Source: Escherichia coli
Lineage (GTDB): Bacteria; Pseudomonadota; Gammaproteobacteria; Enterobacterales; Enterobacteriaceae
Assembly (NCBI RefSeq): GCF_013122565.1
Contig: NZ_CP053258.1
Direction: 5' to 3' (one strand)
Length of the DNA stretch: 64,000 bases
The notes under the pieces are model-generated. The model searched no databases, was not told where the DNA came from, and saw only the letters and a list, made by a program, of their open reading frames with translations. The translations under genes and the position numbers were made by a program. Numbering within the stretch: position 1 is the first letter of the stretch; each line of letters starts with the position of its first letter. Shown here in pieces: positions 7,098-36,880 of this stretch.

Positions 7098-7586
7098 CTA
7101 TTTCACCCGCGCCATATAATACGCATCGACATATTCACCATTACGAAAAGCGTAATTTTTGCCGGTGCCTTCTATGTGAAATCCCAATTTTTTATAGACT
7201 GTGATTGCCGGGGCGTTATCCGCAAACACCGTCAACTCAATACGATCTATCCGTAACCAGTTGTCGCACATTTCAATCAATTCGCGGATCAGGGCGCTGG
7301 CGATGCCGCGGTTGTGCCAGCGGGAGTCAACACAGATACCAAAAGTTGCAACATGACTGCGGCGTGGGCCTTGATAAGCCTCAATGAAAAGATGACCCAC
7401 TACGATGCCATCAATGCAGGCAACCAGTTGTTTAAAACCTTGGCGATCTTTCAATCTTTCTGGCCACCAGCCTTCCGAAGGATGAGGTAGTTGTAGCGTG
7501 TTGCAATACACCTCCGGCTGGGCGTGAATCTGCCTGATGGCCTCGTAATCGCGCGTTTCAGCATGGCGTATCACTATCTCACTCAT
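7098..7586 (-). CDS. yhhY: GNAT-family N-acetyltransferase YhhY
   Basis: 162-aa protein from MSEIVIRHAETRDYEAI; the ORF-track N-terminal extension (to 7664) was rejected. Confidence 0.85.
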   Translation of the reverse strand: MSEIVIRHAETRDYEAIRQIHAQPEVYCNTLQLPHPSEGWWPERLKDRQGFKQLVACIDGIVVGHLFIEAYQGPRRSHVATFGICVDSRWHNRGIASALIRELIEMCDNWLRIDRIELTVFADNAPAITVYKKLGFHIEGTGKNYAFRNGEYVDAYYMARVK

Positions 7587-7683
7587 TCCTTTGTCCTCTT
7601 TGGGGTAAATGTCCCTTTCAACATCATTGACTTTCAAATGCGAGTCAAATGCATTTTTTTGCAAAAAGTGTTGGACAAGTGCG

Positions 7684-7703
7684 AATGAGAATGATTATTA
7701 TTG
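7684..7703 (+). promoter_or_regulatory. Fur box in the ryhB promoter
   Basis: aatgagaatgattattattg resembles the Fur consensus GATAATGATAATCATTATC and lies immediately 5' of ryhB. Confidence 0.7.
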
Positions 7704-7707
7704 TCTC

Positions 7708-7797
7708 GCGATCAGGAAGACCCTCGCGGAGAACCTGAAAGCACGACATTGCTCACATTGCTTCCAGTATTACTTAGCCAGCCGGGTGCTGGCTTTT
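7708..7797 (+). ncRNA. ryhB: small regulatory RNA RyhB (iron-sparing, Fur-repressed, Hfq-dependent)
   Basis: Sequence gcgatcaggaagaccctcgcggagaacctgaaagcacgacattgctcacattgcttccagtattacttagccagccgggtgctggc followed by a T-run is recognised as RyhB; it lies in the yhhY-yhhX intergenic region with an intrinsic terminator hairpin at its 3' end. Confidence 0.9.
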
Positions 7798-7918
7798 TTT
7801 TTGATCTTTCGTTCTCAATTTATCCACGGGAGTGCTTGTGTTCGTTATGCGCACTCCAGTAGGAACCACGTCCGCTTTGCGCTAAGGTGTAAATAACCAC
7901 CTTAAAAAGGACGAAATC

Positions 7919-8956
7919 ATGGTCATCAACTGCGCCTTTATTGGCTTCGGCAAAAGCACCACCCGTTACCATCTGCCGTATGTACTTAACCGCAAGGATA
8001 GCTGGCATGTCGCGCATATTTTTCGCCGCCATGCAAAGCCGGAAGAACAAGCTCCCATTTACTCTCATATCCATTTCACCAGCGATCTCGACGAAGTGCT
8101 AAACGATCCCGATGTTAAGCTGGTTGTTGTCTGCACCCATGCGGACAGCCACTTCGAGTACGCGAAGCGCGCGCTGGAAGCCGGGAAAAATGTGCTGGTC
8201 GAAAAACCGTTCACCCCGACGCTTGCCCAGGCGAAAGAGCTGTTTGCTCTGGCGAAAAGTAAAGGGCTGACCGTCACGCCATATCAGAATCGTCGCTTTG
8301 ATTCCTGCTTCCTGACGGCGAAAAAAGCGATTGAAAGCGGCAAGCTGGGAGAGATTGTCGAAGTGGAAAGCCATTTTGACTATTACCGCCCGGTGGCAGA
8401 AACCAAACCTGGGCTGCCGCAGGATGGCGCGTTCTATGGCCTTGGTGTGCATACGATGGACCAGATTATTTCTCTGTTCGGTCGCCCGGATCACGTCGCT
8501 TATGACATCCGCAGCCTGCGTAATAAAGCCAATCCTGACGACACCTTTGAAGCGCAGCTGTTTTATGGCGACCTGAAAGCCATCGTCAAAACCAGCCATC
8601 TGGTGAAAATCGATTATCCGAAATTTATCGTTCACGGTAAGAAAGGTTCGTTTATTAAATACGGTATCGACCAGCAGGAAACCAGCCTGAAGGCTAATAT
8701 TATGCCGGGCGAACCGGGATTCGCAGCGGATGATTCGGTCGGTGTGCTGGAGTATGTCAATGACGAGGGTGTGACGGTCAGAGAAGAGATGAAGCCAGAG
8801 ATGGGCGATTACGGGCGCGTTTATGATGCGTTGTATCAAACCATCACCAACGGTGCGCCAAATTACGTCAAGGAATCTGAAGTTCTTACCAATCTGGAAA
8901 TCCTTGAACGCGGATTCGAGCAAGCCTCTCCCTCCACAGTGACTCTCGCGAAGTAA
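7919..8956 (+). CDS. yhhX: Gfo/Idh/MocA-family NAD(P)-dependent oxidoreductase
   Basis: 345 aa; N-terminal Rossmann motif AFIGFGKS; conserved position. Confidence 0.85.
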   Translation: MVINCAFIGFGKSTTRYHLPYVLNRKDSWHVAHIFRRHAKPEEQAPIYSHIHFTSDLDEVLNDPDVKLVVVCTHADSHFEYAKRALEAGKNVLVEKPFTPTLAQAKELFALAKSKGLTVTPYQNRRFDSCFLTAKKAIESGKLGEIVEVESHFDYYRPVAETKPGLPQDGAFYGLGVHTMDQIISLFGRPDHVAYDIRSLRNKANPDDTFEAQLFYGDLKAIVKTSHLVKIDYPKFIVHGKKGSFIKYGIDQQETSLKANIMPGEPGFAADDSVGVLEYVNDEGVTVREEMKPEMGDYGRVYDALYQTITNGAPNYVKESEVLTNLEILERGFEQASPSTVTLAK

Positions 8957-25550: not shown

Positions 25551-28016
<2,466 letters not shown>

Positions 28017-28132: not shown

Positions 28133-29650
28133 ATGGAAAGAATAATGCAAAACAGAAAATGGATTTTGACCTCGCTGGTAATGACTTTTTTCGGCATCCC
28201 CATACTGACGCAATTTTTGGCAGCGGTTGTTGCTATGCTGGGGGGCGGGCTTGCCGCTATTCTTGAGGTTTGCAATTTACTCTTTACGCCAGCAATTTAT
28301 CTTCTACTCAACGTCTTTATGCTGACTCTGGGGGCGATAATAATATTTTTCTCTGGTCGCGTGTGGGCGGGCGATAGTGCACCAGAAAAAAAAGAAATAG
28401 CCGTCTGGCGACAATGTCTTTTTTTAGTACCTGCTTTATTCACCCTGGTTGGCTGGATAATCACGCTACATCTGGCAGATTATCAATTTCGCCAGATGGG
28501 AGACGGTTGGTTGGCAAACCTTATGCTTCCCTGGTTGGGCGTTTTTTTAGTCTCATTAGTGGGTGGTGAGTACTGGTGGATAGTCATTATACCCGTTGGC
28601 GCGCATATCAGTTTTTCGCTGGGGTACGGTTGGCCGACCAGACATCTTTTAACGGGCACGTCCGGGTTACGTTGCCGTAATTCCCTCTTGTTTATCCTTC
28701 TCATGCTTGGTTTTGTCGCCGGTTACCAGGCTTATTTATATAAACAGCTTAATCCCGGCGTCGGTGTGCGTGAAAATATTGATACCTGGGCCTGGCGACC
28801 CGATAAACTCAATAATCAACTGACACCACTGCGTGGTAAACCGCAAATTCAGTTCACGCAAAACTGGCCGCGACTCGATGGTGCTACGGCGGCGTACCCA
28901 ATTTATGCCTCTGCATTTTATGCTTTAAGCGTTATACCGGAAGATTTTCACGCCAGGAAATATCTGGAGAACTCTCGTACCCCCGATGCGTATAACAGGA
29001 TTGTTAAAGGTGATGCCGATATTATTTTTGTGGCGCAGCCCTCCGGTGGGCAGAAAAAACGCGCTGAGGAATCGGGCGTCACTTTGCTGTACACGCCTTT
29101 TGCCCGTGAAGCGTTTGTTTTCATCGTCAATGCAGATAACCCGGTTAATTCCCTGACCGAACAACAAGTGCGTGACATCTTCAGTGGCGCAATTACCAAC
29201 TGGCGCACGGTTGGCGGTAACGATCAGGAGATCCAGACCTGGCAACGCCCGGAAGACTCAGGTAGCCAGACGGTGATGCAGGCGCAGGTCATGAAAAATG
29301 TACGTATGATCTCGCCGCAGGAGACCGAAGTGGCTGAAATGATGGGAGGGATGATTAAAGTTGTTGCCGAATACCGTAATACAAACAACTCAATAGGCTA
29401 CACCTTCCGCTATTACGCAACGCAAATGAATACCGATAAGAATATCAAATTGTTAGCGATTAACGGTATTGCACCGACTGCGGAAAACATCCGTAACGGC
29501 AAATATCCCTATATCGTCGATGCCTTTATGGTAACGCGGGAAAATATGACGTCAGAAACGCAAAAACTGGTGGAATGGTTTTTAACGCCGCAGGGGCAAA
29601 GCCTGGTGGAAGATGTGGGTTATGTGCCGATGTATCCAACAATGAAATAA
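28133..29650 (+). CDS. membrane-embedded protein with C-terminal PstS-like periplasmic binding domain
   Basis: 505 aa. N-terminal ~200 aa contains about 5-6 hydrophobic helices; C-terminal ~290 aa resembles PstS-family binding proteins (GATAAYPIYASAFY, WQRPEDSGSQTVMQ, VGYVPMYP). Start could be 28145. Confidence 0.55.
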   Translation: MERIMQNRKWILTSLVMTFFGIPILTQFLAAVVAMLGGGLAAILEVCNLLFTPAIYLLLNVFMLTLGAIIIFFSGRVWAGDSAPEKKEIAVWRQCLFLVPALFTLVGWIITLHLADYQFRQMGDGWLANLMLPWLGVFLVSLVGGEYWWIVIIPVGAHISFSLGYGWPTRHLLTGTSGLRCRNSLLFILLMLGFVAGYQAYLYKQLNPGVGVRENIDTWAWRPDKLNNQLTPLRGKPQIQFTQNWPRLDGATAAYPIYASAFYALSVIPEDFHARKYLENSRTPDAYNRIVKGDADIIFVAQPSGGQKKRAEESGVTLLYTPFAREAFVFIVNADNPVNSLTEQQVRDIFSGAITNWRTVGGNDQEIQTWQRPEDSGSQTVMQAQVMKNVRMISPQETEVAEMMGGMIKVVAEYRNTNNSIGYTFRYYATQMNTDKNIKLLAINGIAPTAENIRNGKYPYIVDAFMVTRENMTSETQKLVEWFLTPQGQSLVEDVGYVPMYPTMK

Positions 29651-29675
29651 CCCTTGAGAGAAGGGAATCAGGGCG

Positions 29676-30677
29676 ATGAATAAATTCACAGAAGTTTTAC
29701 TGCTAGGTGCGGTATTACTGGCGGGATACGCCGACCGGGAAGCATACTATAACAGCGTCAGGGAAGAAGAGAGTCATGGACTGACTTCTCTGCGGGGACA
29801 GCCTGAATTACGTTACAGCGAAGATTGGTCAAGATGGCCCAGAGTGTACGGCGCTACCGCCTTATACCCCCTGTATGCTTCTGCATATTATGAATTAGTA
29901 CCGGAGCCGAAAGATGCGGATCAAACCTCACTGGCCTGGCAGGCGTATGGTCTGCAGCAAACCCGAACAGCTGAAGCCTACGATAATCTGATTAAAGGTA
30001 CTGCGACTGTTATTTTTGTCGCGCAACCTTCTGAAGGGCAGAAAAAACGTGCAGAAGAAGCGGGAGTTAAGCTGAAATATACCGCGTTTGCCCGCGAAGC
30101 CTTTGTCTTTATCGTTGATATCAAAAACCCGGTGAATTCACTCAGCGAACAGCAGGTCAAAGACATTTTTAGCGGTAAAGTGAGTCGCTGGAATAAAGTC
30201 GGTGGCAGCGACGAACGCATAAAAGTGTGGCAGCGCCCGGAAGATTCCGGTAGCCAGACGGTAATGCAAGAGTTAGTTATGCAAGGCACACCGATGTTAC
30301 CCGCTAAAAAATCAACCATGGTTGATCTTATGGGTGGGTTAATTACCGAAGTCGCCGACTATCAAAACACGCCATCTTCAATCGGTTATACCTTTTATTA
30401 TTATGTTACGCGTATGAATAGTAATATGCTCAAAATGCGCAAGCAGATCAAATTATTAGCCATCAACGGCGTCGCCCCCACTGAGGAAAATATTCGCAAC
30501 GGATCTTATCCCTATATTGTGGACGCCTATATGGTGACCCGTGAAAATCCAGCACCGGAAACGCAAAAGTTTGTCGACTGTTTTTTAAGCCCGCAGGGGC
30601 AACAGTTGGTGCAGGATGTGGGGTATGTGCCTTTATACCCGATTACGAACTCTCGTAAAAAGGATTTTGAAAAATGA
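29676..30677 (+). CDS. secreted PstS-like periplasmic binding-domain protein, paralog of the preceding gene
   Basis: 333 aa with N-terminal signal peptide; shares GATALYPLYASAYY, WQRPEDSGSQTVMQ and VGYVPLYP with the upstream gene. Confidence 0.55.
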   Translation: MNKFTEVLLLGAVLLAGYADREAYYNSVREEESHGLTSLRGQPELRYSEDWSRWPRVYGATALYPLYASAYYELVPEPKDADQTSLAWQAYGLQQTRTAEAYDNLIKGTATVIFVAQPSEGQKKRAEEAGVKLKYTAFAREAFVFIVDIKNPVNSLSEQQVKDIFSGKVSRWNKVGGSDERIKVWQRPEDSGSQTVMQELVMQGTPMLPAKKSTMVDLMGGLITEVADYQNTPSSIGYTFYYYVTRMNSNMLKMRKQIKLLAINGVAPTEENIRNGSYPYIVDAYMVTRENPAPETQKFVDCFLSPQGQQLVQDVGYVPLYPITNSRKKDFEK

Positions 30678-30952
30678 AAATATCAATAAGTAAACTTAGT
30701 GAATTTAAAAAGGTTTCTTTATTATTTCTGGCCTACTCATTATTTATTACTGCTGGGTGTGTCAGTCATCAGAATGTTACTGAAAGTATAAAAGAAAAAC
30801 AGAGTTATAATATTACAAGGATACAGGGGAAACCCGTATTACAAATTCCCGAAAAGGAAGCAACGTGGTTGACCGTGGCGAGGGCCACTACGTTATATCC
30901 ATTGTACTCTTCGGCATATCACATGGTTATAGTTGAACCCAGTGGACACTGA
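30674..30952 (+). pseudogene. truncated third PstS-like paralog with lipoprotein signal peptide
   Basis: 92 aa; lipobox ITAGC, then only the first ~45 aa of the binding domain (IQGKPVLQIPE...ATTLYPLYSSAYH) before a stop; ATGA overlap with the upstream gene; very AT-rich DNA follows. Confidence 0.5.
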
Positions 30953-31027
30953 TTCTGATAATATAGAAAAATCAATGATTAACGTCTCTGTTAATATGGG
31001 TATTACTCAGTAAAGGTAAGAAAAATT

Positions 31028-31219
31028 ATGCTGAAACGATTATTTTTTATTATTCTTATTTTATCCGCAACGGGATGTTCTATTGTTGACACCTCTCTGG
31101 AGAAAAAAGACTTACTTAATTTATCTGTATATGAAAATAATATTGTTGATAATTCAGTGTTAATAAGAGTTGTAGCCAGTCAAAAGGTAAAAGAGACCTG
31201 GTATATATGCAACGAATAA
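31028..31219 (+). CDS. small putative lipoprotein (hypothetical)
   Basis: 63 aa; signal peptide with lipobox LSATGC; in the AT-rich block. Confidence 0.35.
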   Translation: MLKRLFFIILILSATGCSIVDTSLEKKDLLNLSVYENNIVDNSVLIRVVASQKVKETWYICNE

Positions 31220-31671
31220 TAGAAAAAGCTTTAACGGTTTTGCTTATGATTTACGCCGGATCAGCAGCTGCCGAAGGTAAAGTGAACGATTTATGCCACA
31301 TAGGTGATCGTGTAGATAAACTTGAGATTACAAATTATCCTCATGATTACGAGTCGCTAGTTGCAGTTGATGAGAAGCGATTGAATGAAATTTATAAATA
31401 CAAGGTTGAAATTACCTATCTTGATAATAAAGAAAGTAAAAAAATTGTTGAACTATTACAAATGGATTATGCGGAACAAGAAGAAAATGTTACTGATGTG
31501 AGGTGGCGGGTGAATATCACTTCATATGGAAATAAAAAATGTGATATCTATTTTGATGGTTTTGGCTTATGTGGAAAAATTAATGGTGAGAATGTCTGTT
31601 TCAGGCATAACGAAATGATACGGTGGATTGAGTCTCATATTTCTGTATTTCTACATAGTGTTAACGAATGA
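31207..31671 (+). CDS. small secreted hypothetical protein
   Basis: 154 aa; signal peptide ending AGSAAAEG; AT-rich codon usage. Confidence 0.4.
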   Translation: MQRIIEKALTVLLMIYAGSAAAEGKVNDLCHIGDRVDKLEITNYPHDYESLVAVDEKRLNEIYKYKVEITYLDNKESKKIVELLQMDYAEQEENVTDVRWRVNITSYGNKKCDIYFDGFGLCGKINGENVCFRHNEMIRWIESHISVFLHSVNE

Positions 31672-31690
31672 ATGTGAAAAAGGAATTTAT

Positions 31691-32143
31691 ATGCAATTTT
31701 TATTTAAAAATAATAAATTATTTTTTATAAGGATAAGGTTAGTTTCGGTTATTTTATTTTTATTTATGAGTACTTCCTTGTATGCTAAAAATCCATGTGA
31801 AGGACTTAAAGGTGATTTACCTGCGGCGCAGTTAATTCCACTTAAGAAAAATATTGCCAGGCAGTTGAATTCTGAAATGGAACAGGTAGTAGAAGTTAAT
31901 AAAGTTGAAATATTATCTTTCGATACCTTGCAGGAATGGTCAATTGTTGGTGTCGCTACCGGAGTATCAGATGATGCATTGTTAATTTATAAAGGGAATA
32001 TCACTAAAACTGATTATGTGGCATTATTTGGAGGCGCTGCAAGTATTAACGATGACATGATCCAATGGATAAACCAGAAAGCGCCGGGAATTCCAGATAA
32101 GTTGGCACAATGTTTTGCGTGGGGAGCTGTATATCGTGATTGA
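31691..32143 (+). CDS. small secreted hypothetical protein
   Basis: 150 aa from MQFLFKNNK with aagga Shine-Dalgarno 8 nt upstream; signal peptide ending LYAKNP. Confidence 0.4.
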   Translation: MQFLFKNNKLFFIRIRLVSVILFLFMSTSLYAKNPCEGLKGDLPAAQLIPLKKNIARQLNSEMEQVVEVNKVEILSFDTLQEWSIVGVATGVSDDALLIYKGNITKTDYVALFGGAASINDDMIQWINQKAPGIPDKLAQCFAWGAVYRD

Positions 32144-32161
32144 TAATAAAAGGACAACCAA

Positions 32162-32869
32162 ATGGAATTAGTTGATACGTTATTTGCAAGCCTCGCCGGT
32201 ACTGATCCTTTCACAGGCGTGGATATTACGATTGCCAAATGCGAATCGGCATATTGGGCCGAGGGCATTGTTCAGCTGCTCATTAACCAGGCCCTGGATG
32301 AAGGGGAAAAGTTCGTCGGTGCTGCCGGTCTTGAGGGATTGCTTCGATATGATGTCACATTAAATATTGGCTTAACGTCCAGCAATGTATGGCCGGGGTT
32401 TTCCCTCGATACCGCCACCATTGGCCGTCTTTGTGCCTGTGGTGCTGACTTTGGATTTGACCCTTATATCAGTGATGTACCAGATGTTCAATGTGACCTG
32501 AACACGACAAATGACTTCACCGTTCAATTTACGGCGATGCTCAACCCGGAGCGGGCGATCATAGCAAAGCGCCCGCTTAAAAAATGTGACTCCTGGATTG
32601 AGGATGTCTATATCTTTCAGGTCTTTAAAGAAGCCTGGAAGTTTCATAACGATAACAGCTTACGAGGATTTCGCGATAAGCAGGCTGAACTGAAACTCTA
32701 CGCGCGTCATTACTCAGTGGAAAATTGTATAGAGGAAAGCTGCCGTGACTGTAATAGTTGTATTCGGCCCAGCTTTTCCCTTTCTCGTAGTGCCATTATT
32801 CGCCTGAACGCGGCGAATGCTCGTTTTGTTTATCAACCGTTTACACGCGACCAGCGGGCGAGGGGGTAA
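32162..32869 (+). CDS. hypothetical protein, Cys-rich C-terminal part
   Basis: 235-aa ORF with no recognisable family; stop lies 2 nt before the next start. Confidence 0.4.
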   Translation: MELVDTLFASLAGTDPFTGVDITIAKCESAYWAEGIVQLLINQALDEGEKFVGAAGLEGLLRYDVTLNIGLTSSNVWPGFSLDTATIGRLCACGADFGFDPYISDVPDVQCDLNTTNDFTVQFTAMLNPERAIIAKRPLKKCDSWIEDVYIFQVFKEAWKFHNDNSLRGFRDKQAELKLYARHYSVENCIEESCRDCNSCIRPSFSLSRSAIIRLNAANARFVYQPFTRDQRARG

Positions 32870-32871
32870 TT

Positions 32872-33660
32872 ATGCAACCCAGTCCCGCCATGCAGAATAT
32901 TATTGCCCATGCCTGGGCGATATTTCATTTTTATCCTGCACCGCAACAGTTCAATATTTGCGTTCCTTGCTGTGTCAGCGAAGAGGTCGCGCAGGCGTTA
33001 CGGCAAACACCGTTACGTCAATTAACCGTTGAAATGATATATGAATGGAACAGTAGCGCGAGGCCTTTTGAACAACAGAATGATGAAATCCGTTACCTCC
33101 TTCCGAGACTGCTGGAATTACTGGCTCACGGTCATTGTCCTGCCATAAATGAAGAGTTATGCCTGAAACGTATTGGCGCTATTTCCCTGGACACCTGGCA
33201 GCCGGAGGAGCGTGATGTACTTACCGATTTTTCCCGCCAGTATATTCGCGATTTATTACTTACCCCGACATTGACCGATCTTGAATCTGCCCTCGTGATG
33301 TTTCATTTTGCCGGACTATCTATAACGGCTTTATTAGATGAGGCGCTGAACACGCCTGGCTATTGGGCTATCGCTTCGCTGGCCTATTTTTTGTATATCA
33401 AGCGTCCAAACGGCGAATTACGTAACGCGTTTATCTCACGCAAGCCGGATGGTGAAGTGATAACGCAGCAAATTAACGCCTGGATTGCGCAATCATGTCA
33501 CGCGCTGGCAGAACGCGCCGCGGCGGCGATTGAATGCTCGCCATCCCTTCCCGGCGGTGGACACACGGAGTACAGTGTTGACCTGAGCTACCTGATTGAC
33601 GAAAGCCTTTGTGCGCTTGTTGATTATCAATTGCTCTGGACGATGGACCGTAATGAATAA
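32872..33660 (+). CDS. hypothetical protein, paralog A of a tandem pair
   Basis: 262 aa beginning MQPSPAMQ; shares N-terminal Cys motif, NDEIRYLLPRL and other blocks with the next gene. Confidence 0.45.
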   Translation: MQPSPAMQNIIAHAWAIFHFYPAPQQFNICVPCCVSEEVAQALRQTPLRQLTVEMIYEWNSSARPFEQQNDEIRYLLPRLLELLAHGHCPAINEELCLKRIGAISLDTWQPEERDVLTDFSRQYIRDLLLTPTLTDLESALVMFHFAGLSITALLDEALNTPGYWAIASLAYFLYIKRPNGELRNAFISRKPDGEVITQQINAWIAQSCHALAERAAAAIECSPSLPGGGHTEYSVDLSYLIDESLCALVDYQLLWTMDRNE

Positions 33661-33671
33661 GGAGATTCACA

Positions 33672-34448
33672 ATGCAACCCAGCCCCGCCATGCAGGCATT
33701 AATTGAGCAGATTTATCATATTTTTCGTCGTTATCCGGTGCCGTCGAGATTTCATGTTTGTTGTCCTTACTGCTTTAGCGAAGAACAACAACAAGCCTTA
33801 AAAGGGGTTTCACTGCGTGCCATACCTTTCCCTTTATTACATGCCTGGGGAACAAGTATTGGCCCTAACCCACAAAATGATAATGAGATTCGCTATTTAT
33901 TACCCAGATTGTTTGACTTTATTGCCCAAAGGCAATTTCCAGGCATTTATGAAGGCTGCTGTTTACAGAGAATAGCAGAAGCAGATAACCAGAACTGGCG
34001 AGCGGATGAACTACAAATAATTAGCGATTTCGCCTATTTATATATGCAGGATTGGGTGTCGGTTAAGGAAGTTGTGGAGCTGGAAATAATATTAGAAATG
34101 TTTTATCGCGGTGGTATAAAGATTGAACCCTTACTTGACGCTATTATGTCCATTTCCGGTTACTGGCCGACGGCGTCAATGGCATGTTTGCTCTGGCGTA
34201 ACAGTAAAGAATACGTCGAAAATAGCGAGTTTGAGCAGAGTGATGATGATAAAACCATTACCACCCAAATCAATACCTGGGCTAGAAATAATCATCCTTT
34301 GCTGAAAGAACGCGCGCGGCAAGCGATTGAGAACCCGCTAAAACAGCCCGAACAGGGCACACGATATCAGGTCTGGGAAGACGACTGGATGATTGATGAG
34401 TGTTTGTGCGCAATGTATGACGCATCATCCGAATCATCAGGACAATAA
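33672..34448 (+). CDS. hypothetical protein, paralog B of a tandem pair
   Basis: 258 aa beginning MQPSPAMQ; paralogous to 32872..33660. Confidence 0.45.
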   Translation: MQPSPAMQALIEQIYHIFRRYPVPSRFHVCCPYCFSEEQQQALKGVSLRAIPFPLLHAWGTSIGPNPQNDNEIRYLLPRLFDFIAQRQFPGIYEGCCLQRIAEADNQNWRADELQIISDFAYLYMQDWVSVKEVVELEIILEMFYRGGIKIEPLLDAIMSISGYWPTASMACLLWRNSKEYVENSEFEQSDDDKTITTQINTWARNNHPLLKERARQAIENPLKQPEQGTRYQVWEDDWMIDECLCAMYDASSESSGQ

Positions 34449-34450
34449 AG

Positions 34451-34633
34451 ATGAATAAAATCAAACTTTATATTCCTCCGCTATTTCTCGGCTTTGTTAT
34501 TGTGCCGCTGTTGGTGTGGCCGACGGTGGTTGCGCTGGCGGCTTTTGGTATCACGCTGAGTTTTCTGGGGGAGTTACTGTTCTTAATCCCGATCATAGTC
34601 CGACGTATGTCACTTCTGGAAGCACAACTTTGA
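34451..34633 (+). CDS. small hydrophobic membrane protein, possibly the N-terminal part of a stop-interrupted gene
   Basis: 60 aa with two predicted transmembrane helices; same reading frame as the following ORF, separated by a single TGA. Confidence 0.3.
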   Translation: MNKIKLYIPPLFLGFVIVPLLVWPTVVALAAFGITLSFLGELLFLIPIIVRRMSLLEAQL

Positions 34634-34666
34634 TTATCGGCTGAATATACGCTTGTTTTCTGTGCA

Positions 34667-35050
34667 ATGGTGGGCGTTGGTTGGCAATTCTCTCGCAGAA
34701 CGTCACCTGAATTAAAAAACAGACTGCATTTTTGGCTGGTCTTTACACCGGTTTATTTCTGGTTGCTTCTGTGGAATATCATTTTCTATATCGGGCCAGC
34801 GAAAAATGCATTGCTGGAAAATATCCGCAATTTCTTTTTAACAATTGTCTGGTTACCGCTGAATTTTTCGCCACTTTGGTCCCAACCGTGGACTGACTTT
34901 GTCGGTCCAATAAGCGCACAGCTTGGTTTTGCGTTGGGATATTATTGCCAGTGGCGTAGCAAAAATAGAAGCCAGGGGCAGAAGTGGGGTGAGTGGGGAA
35001 CGTGTCTTAGTTTTGTTACGTTGGGTATGATGGCATGGGTTTTGCGGTAA
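34667..35050 (+). CDS. hydrophobic membrane protein, possibly the C-terminal part of a stop-interrupted gene
   Basis: 127 aa with predicted transmembrane helices; in frame with 34451..34633. Confidence 0.3.
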   Translation: MVGVGWQFSRRTSPELKNRLHFWLVFTPVYFWLLLWNIIFYIGPAKNALLENIRNFFLTIVWLPLNFSPLWSQPWTDFVGPISAQLGFALGYYCQWRSKNRSQGQKWGEWGTCLSFVTLGMMAWVLR

Positions 35051-35100: not shown

Positions 35101-35199
35101 ATGCCGGATGCGGCGTGAACGCCTTATTCGGCCTACAAAATCATGCAAATTCAATATATTGCATAAACCACGTAGGCTTGATAAGCGTAGCGCATCAGG
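35101..35199. repeat. BIME: two inverted REP units
   Basis: gccggatgcggcgtgaacgccttattcggcctac and gtaggcttgataagcgtagcgcatcagg in inverted orientation. Confidence 0.7.
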
Positions 35200-35263: not shown

Positions 35264-36769
35264 TTACGACGCCAGCGACAACTTCTGCTGCGTATACTCC
35301 ACCAGCCACTGACTCACACGAGATTGTTGATCCGCATTCAGCCACATGCCTTGTTTTGTGCGACGCCACAGGGCATCGTCGGCGCGGCGGACCCATTCGT
35401 GATCCACCAGGTATTTCAGCTCCGCTTCGTAGAACTCATGACCGAAATCCTCCCCGAGGTCGCTTATCGCCCCTGCATTGCCGAGCAGCAGTTCGCTGTT
35501 GCTGCCGTAAGTGCGCGCGTAGTGACGTGCCAGCGATTCAGTCAGGAATGGATAGCGACGGCGCAGACGAGCGGCATAATCGTCGCGGTCACCTTCAATG
35601 GCACCACCCGGCAGCACGCTCTCTTTCGTCCACGCCGGGCCAATACCCTGATAATACGGCGTCAGTTTTTCCAGCGCATGTTCCGCCAGTTTGCGGTAGG
35701 TGGTCAGCTTACCGCCGAATACCGACAGCAGCGGTGCTTTGCCGTTTTCATCATGGATATCAAGGGTGTAATCACGGGTAATAGCCTGCGGCGAGTCGGA
35801 CTCATCATCACACAGCGGACGCACACCGGAGTAGGTCCAGACGATATCATCACGGCTTAGCTGCTTTTTAAAGTGCGTGTTATACACTTTCAGCAGGTAA
35901 TTGATTTCACTCTCTTCAATCTTCACTGCTTTCGGATCACCTTTGTATTCCACATCGGTGGTGCCGATGATTGAAAACTCGTCCATCCACGGGATCACGA
36001 ACACAATACGTTTATCTTCGTTTTGCAGAATGTAGGCTTGCTTCTGGGTATGCACGCGTGGTACCACAATATGGCTGCCTTTGATCAGGCGAATGCCATA
36101 AGGTGAGGGCAGATGCATCCCGTCGTCGAAGAACTGTTTCACCCACGGGCCGGTGGCGTTAACCAGGCCGCGCGCTTGCCAGCTATATTTTTTGCCGGTA
36201 TCGATATCTTCCGCTTCCACAATCCACAGGCCGTTTTCGCGGCGAGCAGAGGTGGCGCGAGTCCGAGTAAGCACTTCGCCGCCTTTACGCACCACCATCT
36301 GGGCGTTGGCGAGTACCAGACGGGCGTCGTCTACCCAACAGTCAGAATATTCGAATCCGCGCTTAATTTCCGGTTTTAACACTGAGTTTGCGCCAAAACG
36401 CAAACCGGTTGATCCCGGCAGGCTGGTGCGTTTACCCAGATGATCGTACATAAACAGACCAATGCGAATCATCCACGCCGGGCGCAGATGCGGACGATGC
36501 GGCAGGCGAAAACGCATCGGGAAGGCGATATGAGGGGCCATTTTCAGTAGCACTTCACGTTCAGCCAGCGCCTCGCTGACCAGGCGGAATTCATAGTGCT
36601 CAAGGTAGCGCAGGCCACCGTGAATGAGTTTTGAACTGGCGGAAGAGGTCGCACAAGCGAGATCCTGCGCCTCCAGCATCAGCACGGATAAACCGCGTCC
36701 AGCGGCGTCTGCCGCGATACCAGCACCATTGATGCCGCCCCCTATCACAATCAGATCTTTGGTTTCCAT
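35264..36769 (-). CDS. glpD: aerobic glycerol-3-phosphate dehydrogenase
   Basis: 501 aa from METKDLIVIGGGINGAG (FAD-binding Rossmann motif). Confidence 0.93.
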   Translation of the reverse strand: METKDLIVIGGGINGAGIAADAAGRGLSVLMLEAQDLACATSSASSKLIHGGLRYLEHYEFRLVSEALAEREVLLKMAPHIAFPMRFRLPHRPHLRPAWMIRIGLFMYDHLGKRTSLPGSTGLRFGANSVLKPEIKRGFEYSDCWVDDARLVLANAQMVVRKGGEVLTRTRATSARRENGLWIVEAEDIDTGKKYSWQARGLVNATGPWVKQFFDDGMHLPSPYGIRLIKGSHIVVPRVHTQKQAYILQNEDKRIVFVIPWMDEFSIIGTTDVEYKGDPKAVKIEESEINYLLKVYNTHFKKQLSRDDIVWTYSGVRPLCDDESDSPQAITRDYTLDIHDENGKAPLLSVFGGKLTTYRKLAEHALEKLTPYYQGIGPAWTKESVLPGGAIEGDRDDYAARLRRRYPFLTESLARHYARTYGSNSELLLGNAGAISDLGEDFGHEFYEAELKYLVDHEWVRRADDALWRRTKQGMWLNADQQSRVSQWLVEYTQQKLSLAS

Positions 36770-36880
36770 GCTGCCCTCATTCACTTTCGTTAAAGCTCAT
36801 AAATGTTCGTTATCGAACATATTAGCAAAGAATCGCGCTTTAGGTAACATTGAAAAAACATTTTAGAGTGATATGTATAA

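Follow-up and report, generated by a model that had tools for sequence, protein, structure and literature searches.

In a 64,000-nucleotide stretch of Escherichia coli DNA (contig NZ_CP053258.1 of assembly GCF_013122565.1; hereafter the window), the gap between glgP (positions 25569-28016) and glpD (minus strand, about 35264-36784) is filled by an array of co-directional genes, one part of which, from about 30630 to 32143, is very AT-rich. We think it probable that this array, made up of small genes and variable in Escherichia, is old, that the tract is its section for exported proteins, partly eroded here, and that the tract contains an orphan gene of a type associated with immunity to Rhs toxins. 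The tract consists of two intact genes and three stumps left by deletions, i.e. three of its five units are truncated. The original prediction for this DNA, made from the sequence alone, had described three small exported proteins; two of these are intact, conserved genes, for proteins of 154 and 150 amino acids (aa), and the third, a 63-aa open reading frame (ORF), is one of the stumps.

The evidence for an immunity-type gene comes from the 154-aa protein (31207-31671, plus strand). Its N-terminus, as read from the sequence, has a K/R n-region, a hydrophobic core and an AAA/E site (MQRIIEKALTVLLMIYAGSAAA before EGK). A DNA search of E. coli genomes with the gene matched genes annotated "RHS element protein dsORF-h1", and the 154-aa protein aligns with E. 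coli dsORF-h1 (WP_000978828.1, 149 aa) over its full length with 46% amino acid identity (E-value 3e-46). Both proteins have a signal peptide and the motif R-W...C.IYFD.FG.CG..NG.NVCF..NEMI.WI, and both genes are equally low in G+C content. Word-indexed protein searches missed dsORF-h1 itself as a relative, and a full-library profile search found 118 clusters of the family at 50% identity, mostly 150-170 aa long, with the common motif D(L/V)RWG...IYFD..G..G.IN...V.F...L..WL; a signal-like N-terminal segment is present in nearly all of 40 aligned members. The 154-aa protein has no match in Pfam, NCBIfam or PADLOC, and its best match among the PHROGs is non-significant (phrog_27024, E-value 0.049). 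The family has no solved relative by sequence, and the AlphaFold2 (AF2) model of the 154-aa protein, although confident (predicted local distance difference test, pLDDT, 92), has no fold match in the PDB by Foldseek (best E-value 0.35).

At four loci, members of this family lie just downstream of Rhs genes. In E. coli AR436 (locus L002), the dsORF-h1 gene begins 12 nucleotides (nt) after the gene for a 1,421-aa RHS core protein (RhsH) whose tip carries ...PALGLGHEFAHA... We inspected the context of four further relatives and found three of them linked to toxins: in Salmonella (L014), the gene for a 155-aa member has a 4-nt overlap with the end of an orphan Rhs tip, and a full Rhs gene lies upstream of that tip; in Hafnia alvei (L018), the gene for a 158-aa member has an overlap of the same length with the end of a 1,361-aa Rhs gene; and in E. 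coli (L016, GCA_017012735.1), about 160 nt separate a 1,406-aa PAAR-type Rhs gene from the gene for a distant 164-aa member (20% identity) that comes after it. The four Rhs tips are mutually homologous, sharing an HExxH motif within PALGLGHE[FMI]AHA and a second block, EE.RVI..E..AAK.L; the Pfam Peptidase_M91 match on the RhsH tip is weak (E-value 0.004). The tip and dsORF-h1 occur side by side as a module in 1,083 of the 5,426 complete E. coli genomes. By gene order, then, the family holds the immunity position of a putative toxin-immunity pair in E. coli, Salmonella and Hafnia. Beside the Rhs and 164-aa pair, on the opposite strand, we also saw a cluster (L016, 7413-12495) with genes for a HEF_HK histidine-kinase-like protein, a Response_reg_2 protein and a DNA methylase, which may be a separate defense-type module.

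Whereas about 20% of E. coli genomes have dsORF-h1 directly after its own Rhs core and tip, the copy in the window sits without a toxin partner in the glgP-glpD array. Its upstream neighbor is a truncated lipoprotein gene, not a cognate tip, and by TBLASTN we found no Rhs or HExxH toxin tip in the 64-kb window. Because family members directly follow Rhs tips elsewhere and no tip is present here, the 154-aa gene appears to be an orphan copy of a family that occupies the immunity position. Since its identity to dsORF-h1 is only 46%, its toxin specificity probably differs from that of dsORF-h1. The signal peptide is in keeping with a toxin whose site of action is outside the cytoplasm. We propose that the protein would be exported by the Sec pathway to the periplasm, where it would bind and block an incoming Rhs metallopeptidase sent by a neighboring cell through its type VI secretion system (T6SS), so protecting a cell that does not itself carry the Rhs weapon; it would probably be a stray antidote kept as a defense against related bacteria.

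The second intact gene (31691-32143, plus strand) encodes a 150-aa member of a broad, uncharacterized family of proteins exported by Proteobacteria. Its N-terminus is hydrophobic and of the signal type (...LVSVILFLFMSTSLYA before KNPC, read from the sequence), and it has a conserved cysteine pair (C36/C141). We place its start at the ATG at 31691, where homologs of 148-153 aa begin at the equivalent site; the sequence AAGGA lies 7 nt upstream and the previous stop codon 20 nt upstream. The gene overlap at 31628 that had been reported for this DNA is an artefact of taking the first TTG as the start. The protein has five close clusters, and the three that we inspected (P0001, P0003 and P0004) are all at glgP-glpD, directly before a 235/236-aa gene. 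A profile scan of genome contigs with the 150-aa alignment gave one Escherichia locus, and the context in other genera was obtained from a TBLASTN search of plasmid records and the look-up of a repaired pseudogene. The TBLASTN search found weaker relatives in Salmonella (35% identity, E-value 3e-25), Serratia, Agrobacterium and Sinorhizobium; the relatives have in common two cysteines, one tryptophan and an A.CF motif at the C-terminus. The Salmonella copy, in CP075030.1, contains a TAA stop codon, and when this is restored to CAA it corresponds to an existing protein, P0186 (137 aa, in a cluster of 599 members). P0186 is located between yegQ and a gene of about 700 aa with a DUF4034 domain, in an AT-rich array of ten or more small genes in the same orientation (G+C content 0.37, versus 0.545 for yegQ). 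A remnant of an Rhs core end (DPIGL...DPLGL) lies within 30 nt after P0186, and an Ntox34 fragment, Sel1 and HEAT-type genes and an ISAs1 fragment are nearby. Pfam searches with the neighbors of the homologs in Serratia, Salmonella and Sinorhizobium were uninformative.

The AF2 model of the 150-aa protein is of moderate confidence (pLDDT 72.8) and consists of a helix, four strands and two helices; the PDB matches are weak and either cystatin-like or Tai3-like (E-values of 0.08 or more), and 63 uncharacterized exported proteins of Proteobacteria in AFDB50 match at E-values of 1e-3 or less (template modeling score 0.6-0.65), two of them named "DsbC/G N-terminal domain-containing" and several "lipoprotein". 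Neither this protein nor the 63-aa ORF has a significant match in the family libraries (Pfam, NCBIfam, PADLOC and PHROGs). A kinship between the 150-aa and 154-aa families was considered and rejected, as a profile-profile comparison found none (probability 3.6%). The evidence for the 150-aa protein is circumstantial and makes it a plausible candidate for an orphan immunity or inhibitor protein: it would be a second periplasmic, disulfide-containing protein, most likely a defensive binder against an effector that acts in the periplasm. Two further relatives have neighbors or names of interest. On the Serratia marcescens plasmid pELP1.10 (L024, 1305-7411), a homolog with 25% identity has a Pvc16-family gene upstream of it, with a few hypothetical genes in between; the Pvc16-family gene is annotated as part of an extracellular contractile injection system, and the genes in between have no informative Pfam match. 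The AFDB50 match A0A1C6Z208 from Hafnia alvei (100 aa, 34% identity to the 150-aa protein) is named "phosphate transport system substrate-binding protein", a name that may point to an arrangement of a PstS-like gene with a small-protein gene, or to a fusion of the two, outside Escherichia.

Both intact genes are under purifying selection. By the Nei-Gojobori method, the ratio of nonsynonymous to synonymous divergence (dN/dS) is 0.15-0.20 for the 150-aa gene (window versus E. albertii and versus E. coli L008) and 0.14 for the 154-aa gene (window versus E. coli L001). The concern that the small ORFs might be spurious is borne out for the 63-aa ORF, which is no gene in its own right, and not for the two longer ones, which are conserved with dN/dS of 0.14-0.20. 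The original prediction had also called the tract recently acquired, a view that the data contradict: E. albertii has the same cassettes, in the same order and at the same glgP-glpD site, with 79-83% DNA identity, and the synonymous divergence (dS) of the cassettes equals or exceeds that of the core gene glgP (for the 150-aa gene, dS to E. albertii is 1.2, versus 0.61 for glgP; for the 154-aa gene, dS to E. coli L001 is 0.47, versus 0.21 for glgP). Because E. albertii shares the cassettes and their site, and dS is no lower than in glgP, these comparisons indicate that the block is old at glgP-glpD or has been exchanged only within Escherichia. In E. albertii L003 the 154-aa ortholog (7519-7982) is split into ORFs of 97 and 69 aa by the loss of one A in an A7 run, and its neighbors, the 134-, 120- and 151-aa genes, are intact. 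Since the frameshift has spared the neighbors, lineages differ in which cassettes have been inactivated.

The sharp drop in G+C content that had been claimed for the tract is real. Sliding-window calculation gives 0.325 over 30953-32150, compared to a mean of 0.517 for the window (1-kb windows, standard deviation 0.042; z = -4.6), and the 1-kb window starting at 30901 has the lowest G+C content in all 64 kb. At third codon positions (GC3) the two intact ORFs have values of 0.27-0.28, versus 0.47-0.62 for the flanking genes. The block had been said to start exactly where a PstS-like gene is truncated. That stump does end at the left edge of the block, but the composition begins to fall earlier than 30953, near 30450-30630, and the low-G+C tract extends from about 30630, so that the 92-aa stump (30674-30952, G+C content 0.366) lies inside it. 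The E. albertii cassettes are equally AT-rich (0.337), and at the four Rhs loci the immunity genes (0.27-0.33) and the tips (0.36-0.38) are similarly low, in contrast to the Rhs cores (0.57-0.63). Because of these two similarities, we regard the low G+C content as the normal composition of toxin-tip and immunity modules, intrinsic to these genes and no sign of a recent arrival.

The three truncated units lie at the left of the tract, all on the plus strand. The 92-aa stump at 30674-30952 belongs to a third PstS-like lipoprotein paralog: it has its own lipobox (LFITAG/C) and matches residues 27-78 of the 333-aa paralog located just upstream (42% identity over 52 aa, E-value 2e-13), and the 505-aa paralog with 33% identity. 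It comprises the leader and only about the first 50 residues of the binding-protein domain, not a complete two-lobed periplasmic binding domain, and its ORF ends 3-4 codons after passing out of frame into the next remnant. By DNA search this 92-aa segment has no match among the 5,426 complete E. coli genomes, and a word-indexed search of 5.8 billion protein clusters, which is blind to distant relatives, returned only the stump itself. The next remnant, at approximately 30941-31013, is the 3' end of a gene for a 134-aa signal-peptide protein. It retains about 23 codons and the stop codon at 31011-31013, and aligns with the last ~70 nt of the intact 134-aa gene in E. coli 2017-02-2CC and E. albertii (...EKSMINVSVNMGITQ versus ...EKSMLNDSVNINVTQ, each up to the stop); BLAST homology runs from 30966, and the left end of the remnant is its joint with the PstS-like stump.

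The third truncated unit is the ORF at 31028-31219 that had been described as a gene for a 63-aa lipoprotein. Its N-terminus is of the hydrophobic signal type with a lipobox (MLKRLFFIILILSATG before C, read from the sequence), and the intact protein, found in E. albertii and one E. coli, is a lipoprotein of 120 aa (MLKRLFAIILILSVPGCSV...). Positions 31028-31182 are the 5' half of the 120-aa gene, giving 52 genuine N-terminal codons, and 31183-31219 are an out-of-frame read-through that adds the last 11 codons from the next gene. Window positions 30966-31182 align with E. albertii L003 7082-7292 (79% identity) and positions 31183-32115 with L003 7492-8419 (83%); because these two stretches of L003 are not contiguous, 199 bp of the lipoprotein gene are missing at the junction 31182/31183 relative to E. 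albertii, a length that is not a multiple of 3. The reported overlap of genes at 31207 exists as an overlap of ORFs (31028-31219 with 31207-31671), and is a by-product of this deletion, because the 199-bp loss makes the 63-aa frame read into the next gene.

The tract had also been interpreted as a secondary insertion that disrupted the third PstS-like gene, an interpretation that the left joint does not support. A TBLASTN search for the missing 3' portion of the paralog found no PstS-like sequence after position 30940, in any frame downstream or elsewhere in the window, and what adjoins the stump is a second truncated gene. The block is not flanked by inverted repeats, target duplications, insertion sequence (IS) elements or integrase genes, and no repeats were found at the cassette junctions. 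Because both partners are truncated, the other half of the PstS-like gene is absent, and there are no repeats or mobility genes, we conclude that this joint is the result of deletion and not of insertion; it is one of at least two such joints in the block. In the history that we envisage, one deletion fused the 5' stump of the third PstS-like gene to the 3' stump of the 134-aa gene; the other, of 199 bp, halved the 120-aa lipoprotein gene and left the apparent 63-aa lipoprotein.

Around the tract, the content of the glgP-glpD array depends on the strain. E. coli K-12 retains only the remnant yzgL, and other E. coli, E. albertii and Escherichia sp. strains carry from three to about eleven genes. 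By BLAST and alignment (E. albertii L003-L007; E. coli L001, L012 and L008-L011), the common order of cassettes begins with a 505-aa membrane-anchored PstS-like protein, sometimes followed by a second, PstS-like lipoprotein; continues with the 134-aa signal-peptide protein, the 120-aa lipoprotein, and the signal-peptide proteins of 154 and 150-153 aa; and ends with proteins of 235/236, 255-262 and about 200 aa, sometimes with an ankyrin protein and a protein of about 143 aa after them. The genes all point the same way, and over most of the array 0-25 nt separate one from the next; scans for promoters and terminators gave nothing above chance. Our searches of the literature on yzgL, dsORF-h1, and glgP/glpD with Rhs or immunity did not turn up an account of this island.

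At the head of the array in the window are two PstS-like (PBP_like_2) paralogs (28133-30677, plus strand), a 505-aa protein (28133-29650) and a 333-aa lipoprotein (29676-30677). The N-terminal domain of the 505-aa protein, about 200 residues long, contains several hydrophobic segments, as in a multi-pass membrane protein, and the gene for this protein comes first in the island in every Escherichia variant that we inspected. The two paralogs match TIGR02136 with E-values of 1e-34 and 9e-38, at 120-130 bits; because these scores are far below the curated PstS cut-off (206.6), the paralogs are unlikely to be the binding protein of a phosphate transporter.

Downstream of the tract, the rest of the array (32162-35050, plus strand) has a normal G+C content and comprises a 235-aa gene, tandem paralogs of 262 and 258 aa, and a gene for a membrane protein of about 200 aa; none of these four proteins has a signal peptide. 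The 235-, 262- and 258-aa genes, present in 3,321 of the 5,426 E. coli genomes, are confined to this locus and absent from plasmids, and their proteins have no informative family matches; in E. coli we found no off-locus copies of these genes or of the 134- and 120-aa genes. A "YbbD family" label for the 235-aa protein was rejected, as its NCBIfam match scores 24 bits against a cut-off of 373, and the protein has no similarity to the rhsD-ybbC-ylbH-ybbD region of K-12. The tandem paralogs, 262 aa (32872-33660) and 258 aa (33672-34448), both begin with MQPSPAMQ, and the first 24 nt of their genes are 96% identical (repeat D4). Some strains have a single copy, with a recombinant joint at the shared 5' end (window 32895 maps to 33672 in L004, L008 and L012). 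The membrane-protein gene (34451-35050) has an in-frame TGA at codon 61 (about 34631-34633), in comparison to the intact 204-aa gene of E. coli 2020CK-00188 (L001), and is probably a pseudogene. The ankyrin-repeat gene and the ~143-aa gene that come next in other strains are absent from the window array. In the spacer between the array and glpD, which resembles a repetitive extragenic palindromic (REP) element, there is a match to the Rfam small RNA (sRNA) family ES036 (CssrF) at 35137-35179 (39.4 bits, gathering score 37.6), and this match may merely reflect the REP element.

Three other accounts of the tract can be set against the one that we prefer. The first is the interpretation in the original prediction, that a recent secondary insertion of foreign AT-rich DNA split the third PstS-like gene and has been kept silent by H-NS. 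The very low G+C content and the end of the PstS-like stump at the left edge of the block fit this account, and AT-rich DNA is the preferred substrate of H-NS. Nevertheless we consider it very improbable: the other half of the PstS-like gene is absent beyond the block; the stump is joined to another truncated gene; there are no repeats or mobility genes; the cassettes and locus shared with E. albertii, together with dS values at least as high as in glgP, are at odds with a recent arrival; and purifying selection on two intact genes would not be expected in DNA that is permanently silent. Even less probable, in our view, is that the ORFs are chance frames or dead pseudogenes in decaying AT-rich DNA. 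Decay there certainly is, with three of the five units truncated, a nonsense codon in a downstream gene and a frameshift in the E. albertii 154-aa gene, but the two intact genes have dN/dS of 0.14-0.20 at dS values of 0.47-1.2, they are conserved at full length in several lineages, and the AF2 model of the 154-aa protein is a confident one.

The remaining account is that the small exported proteins and the PstS-like binding proteins form one operon with one function in the envelope, such as binding or sensing a phosphorylated ligand. The genes are co-directional and closely spaced with no terminator signal above chance, a membrane-anchored PstS-like gene heads every variant inspected, the Hafnia relative of the 150-aa protein bears the name of a phosphate-binding protein, and some relatives of the 150-aa protein have no toxins nearby. 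However, the cassettes vary freely between strains under a constant PstS-like head, unlike the components of a co-adapted pathway; the 154-aa family is tied to Rhs tips at four loci, with the module present in 1,083 E. coli genomes; and the E. albertii 154-aa gene has been lost to a frameshift among intact neighbors. We therefore judge a shared envelope function to be improbable, if less so than the other two accounts.

Several observations weigh against our own account, that of an eroded array with an orphan gene of the Rhs-immunity type. Even the nearest toxin-linked member of its family has no more than 46% identity to the orphan, and more distant members of the family occur away from toxins, for example in the metagenomic locus L019. 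The relatives of the 150-aa protein in Agrobacterium and Sinorhizobium have no evident toxin nearby. The 235-, 262- and 258-aa genes and the PstS-like genes show no link to toxins, and the "YbbD family" label of the first of these rests on the 24-bit match mentioned above, without similarity to K-12 ybbD. We found no genome with an intact third PstS-like paralog beside an intact 134-aa gene, so the first deletion is deduced from the truncation of both. The searchable literature contains no experimental test of neutralization for dsORF-h1, the 154-aa protein or the 150-aa family. In Salmonella, the authors who described the islets at yegQ left open the function of the Paratyphi C-type islet, which is the variant that appears to hold the homolog of the 150-aa protein (PMC7400221).

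The block would belong to a known kind of locus, that of orphan immunity genes and islets. Recombinase-associated acquired interbacterial defense (AID) systems have a tyrosine recombinase and repeats and are found on mobile elements, whereas the block in the window has no recombinase, repeats or mobility genes. A likeness can also be drawn to the AID clusters of Bacteroidales, in which immunity genes are stockpiled without their cognate toxins against the T6SS effectors of neighbors (summarized in PMC7400221). At the yegQ locus of Salmonella, Barretto and Fowler described in 2020 the islet SAIDI-1 of S. Typhi and a related "Paratyphi C islet", and proposed that SAIDI-1, in its Typhi form, is an array of orphan immunity genes against T6SS and contact-dependent inhibition (CDI) effectors, mostly with extracytoplasmic products; the immunity roles were assigned to t0728-t0735 of the Typhi islet and not to the variant that apparently carries the 150-aa homolog (PMC7400221). 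Like the AT-rich block in the window, the yegQ islets are chromosomally fixed AT-rich arrays (G+C content about 34-37%) of small co-directional genes, with mostly extracytoplasmic products and a content that varies among lineages, and they contain degraded Rhs remnants, pseudogenes and the 35%-identical homolog of the 150-aa protein. They differ from the block in the window, which is located at glgP-glpD, has no Rhs remnants and shows one gene family in common with them. Across the block and island, homology to toxin-adjacent proteins is clear for the 154-aa gene and circumstantial for the 150-aa gene, whose homolog in the yegQ islet lies beside an Rhs remnant; for the 134-, 120-, 235-, 262- and 258-aa genes, no homologs were found directly after toxins.

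The Rhs side of the comparison is with S. Dublin, where a PAAR-RHS-Peptidase_M91 effector contributes to the antibacterial activity of the T6SS, the product of the gene downstream counteracts it, and the effector is classed among those that target the cell wall (PMC8867033, PMC12288458). Because that effector, SED_RS06335, is predicted to act on the cell wall, immunity to it would be needed outside the cytoplasm. The pair SED_RS06335/SED_RS06340 in SPI-19 of S. Dublin (PMC8867033) resembles the Rhs modules linked to the 154-aa family in having an Rhs shell, an M91-like tip with an HExxH motif, and a small downstream gene whose product has a hydrophobic N-terminus. SED_RS06340 is a protein of 110 aa with one transmembrane segment, and the likeness drawn here to the 154-aa family is one of architecture; the M91 match of the E. 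coli RhsH tip is the weak one given above (E-value 0.004).

A wider generalization, which we offer tentatively and think rather less likely than not to hold in full, is that throughout Escherichia the glgP-glpD gap serves as a chromosomally fixed depot for orphan immunity genes, the counterpart of the yegQ islets of Salmonella. It would consist of an AT-rich sub-block of periplasmic binders and a sub-block of normal G+C content for cytoplasmic binders, with deletion and homologous exchange as the main causes of reshuffling; the 154-aa family would inhibit M91-like Rhs metallopeptidases and have a new fold, and the 150-aa family would be a new disulfide-bonded, cystatin-like inhibitor of another effector that acts in the periplasm.

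For annotation, the tract is a reminder that apparent genes in such arrays can be debris, as three of the five "genes" here are deletion stumps. For the biology of the organism, if our account is true, this strain keeps an antidote to a weapon that it may not itself carry, in a species in which about one in five complete genomes has an RhsH-type tip with dsORF-h1, and the glgP-glpD gap would mark past and present conflict between bacteria in Escherichia. The two protein families, which have neither a Pfam entry nor a solved structure, are candidate inhibitors of toxins that act in the periplasm, and one of them, the 154-aa family, has a confident model to which Foldseek finds no matching fold in the PDB.

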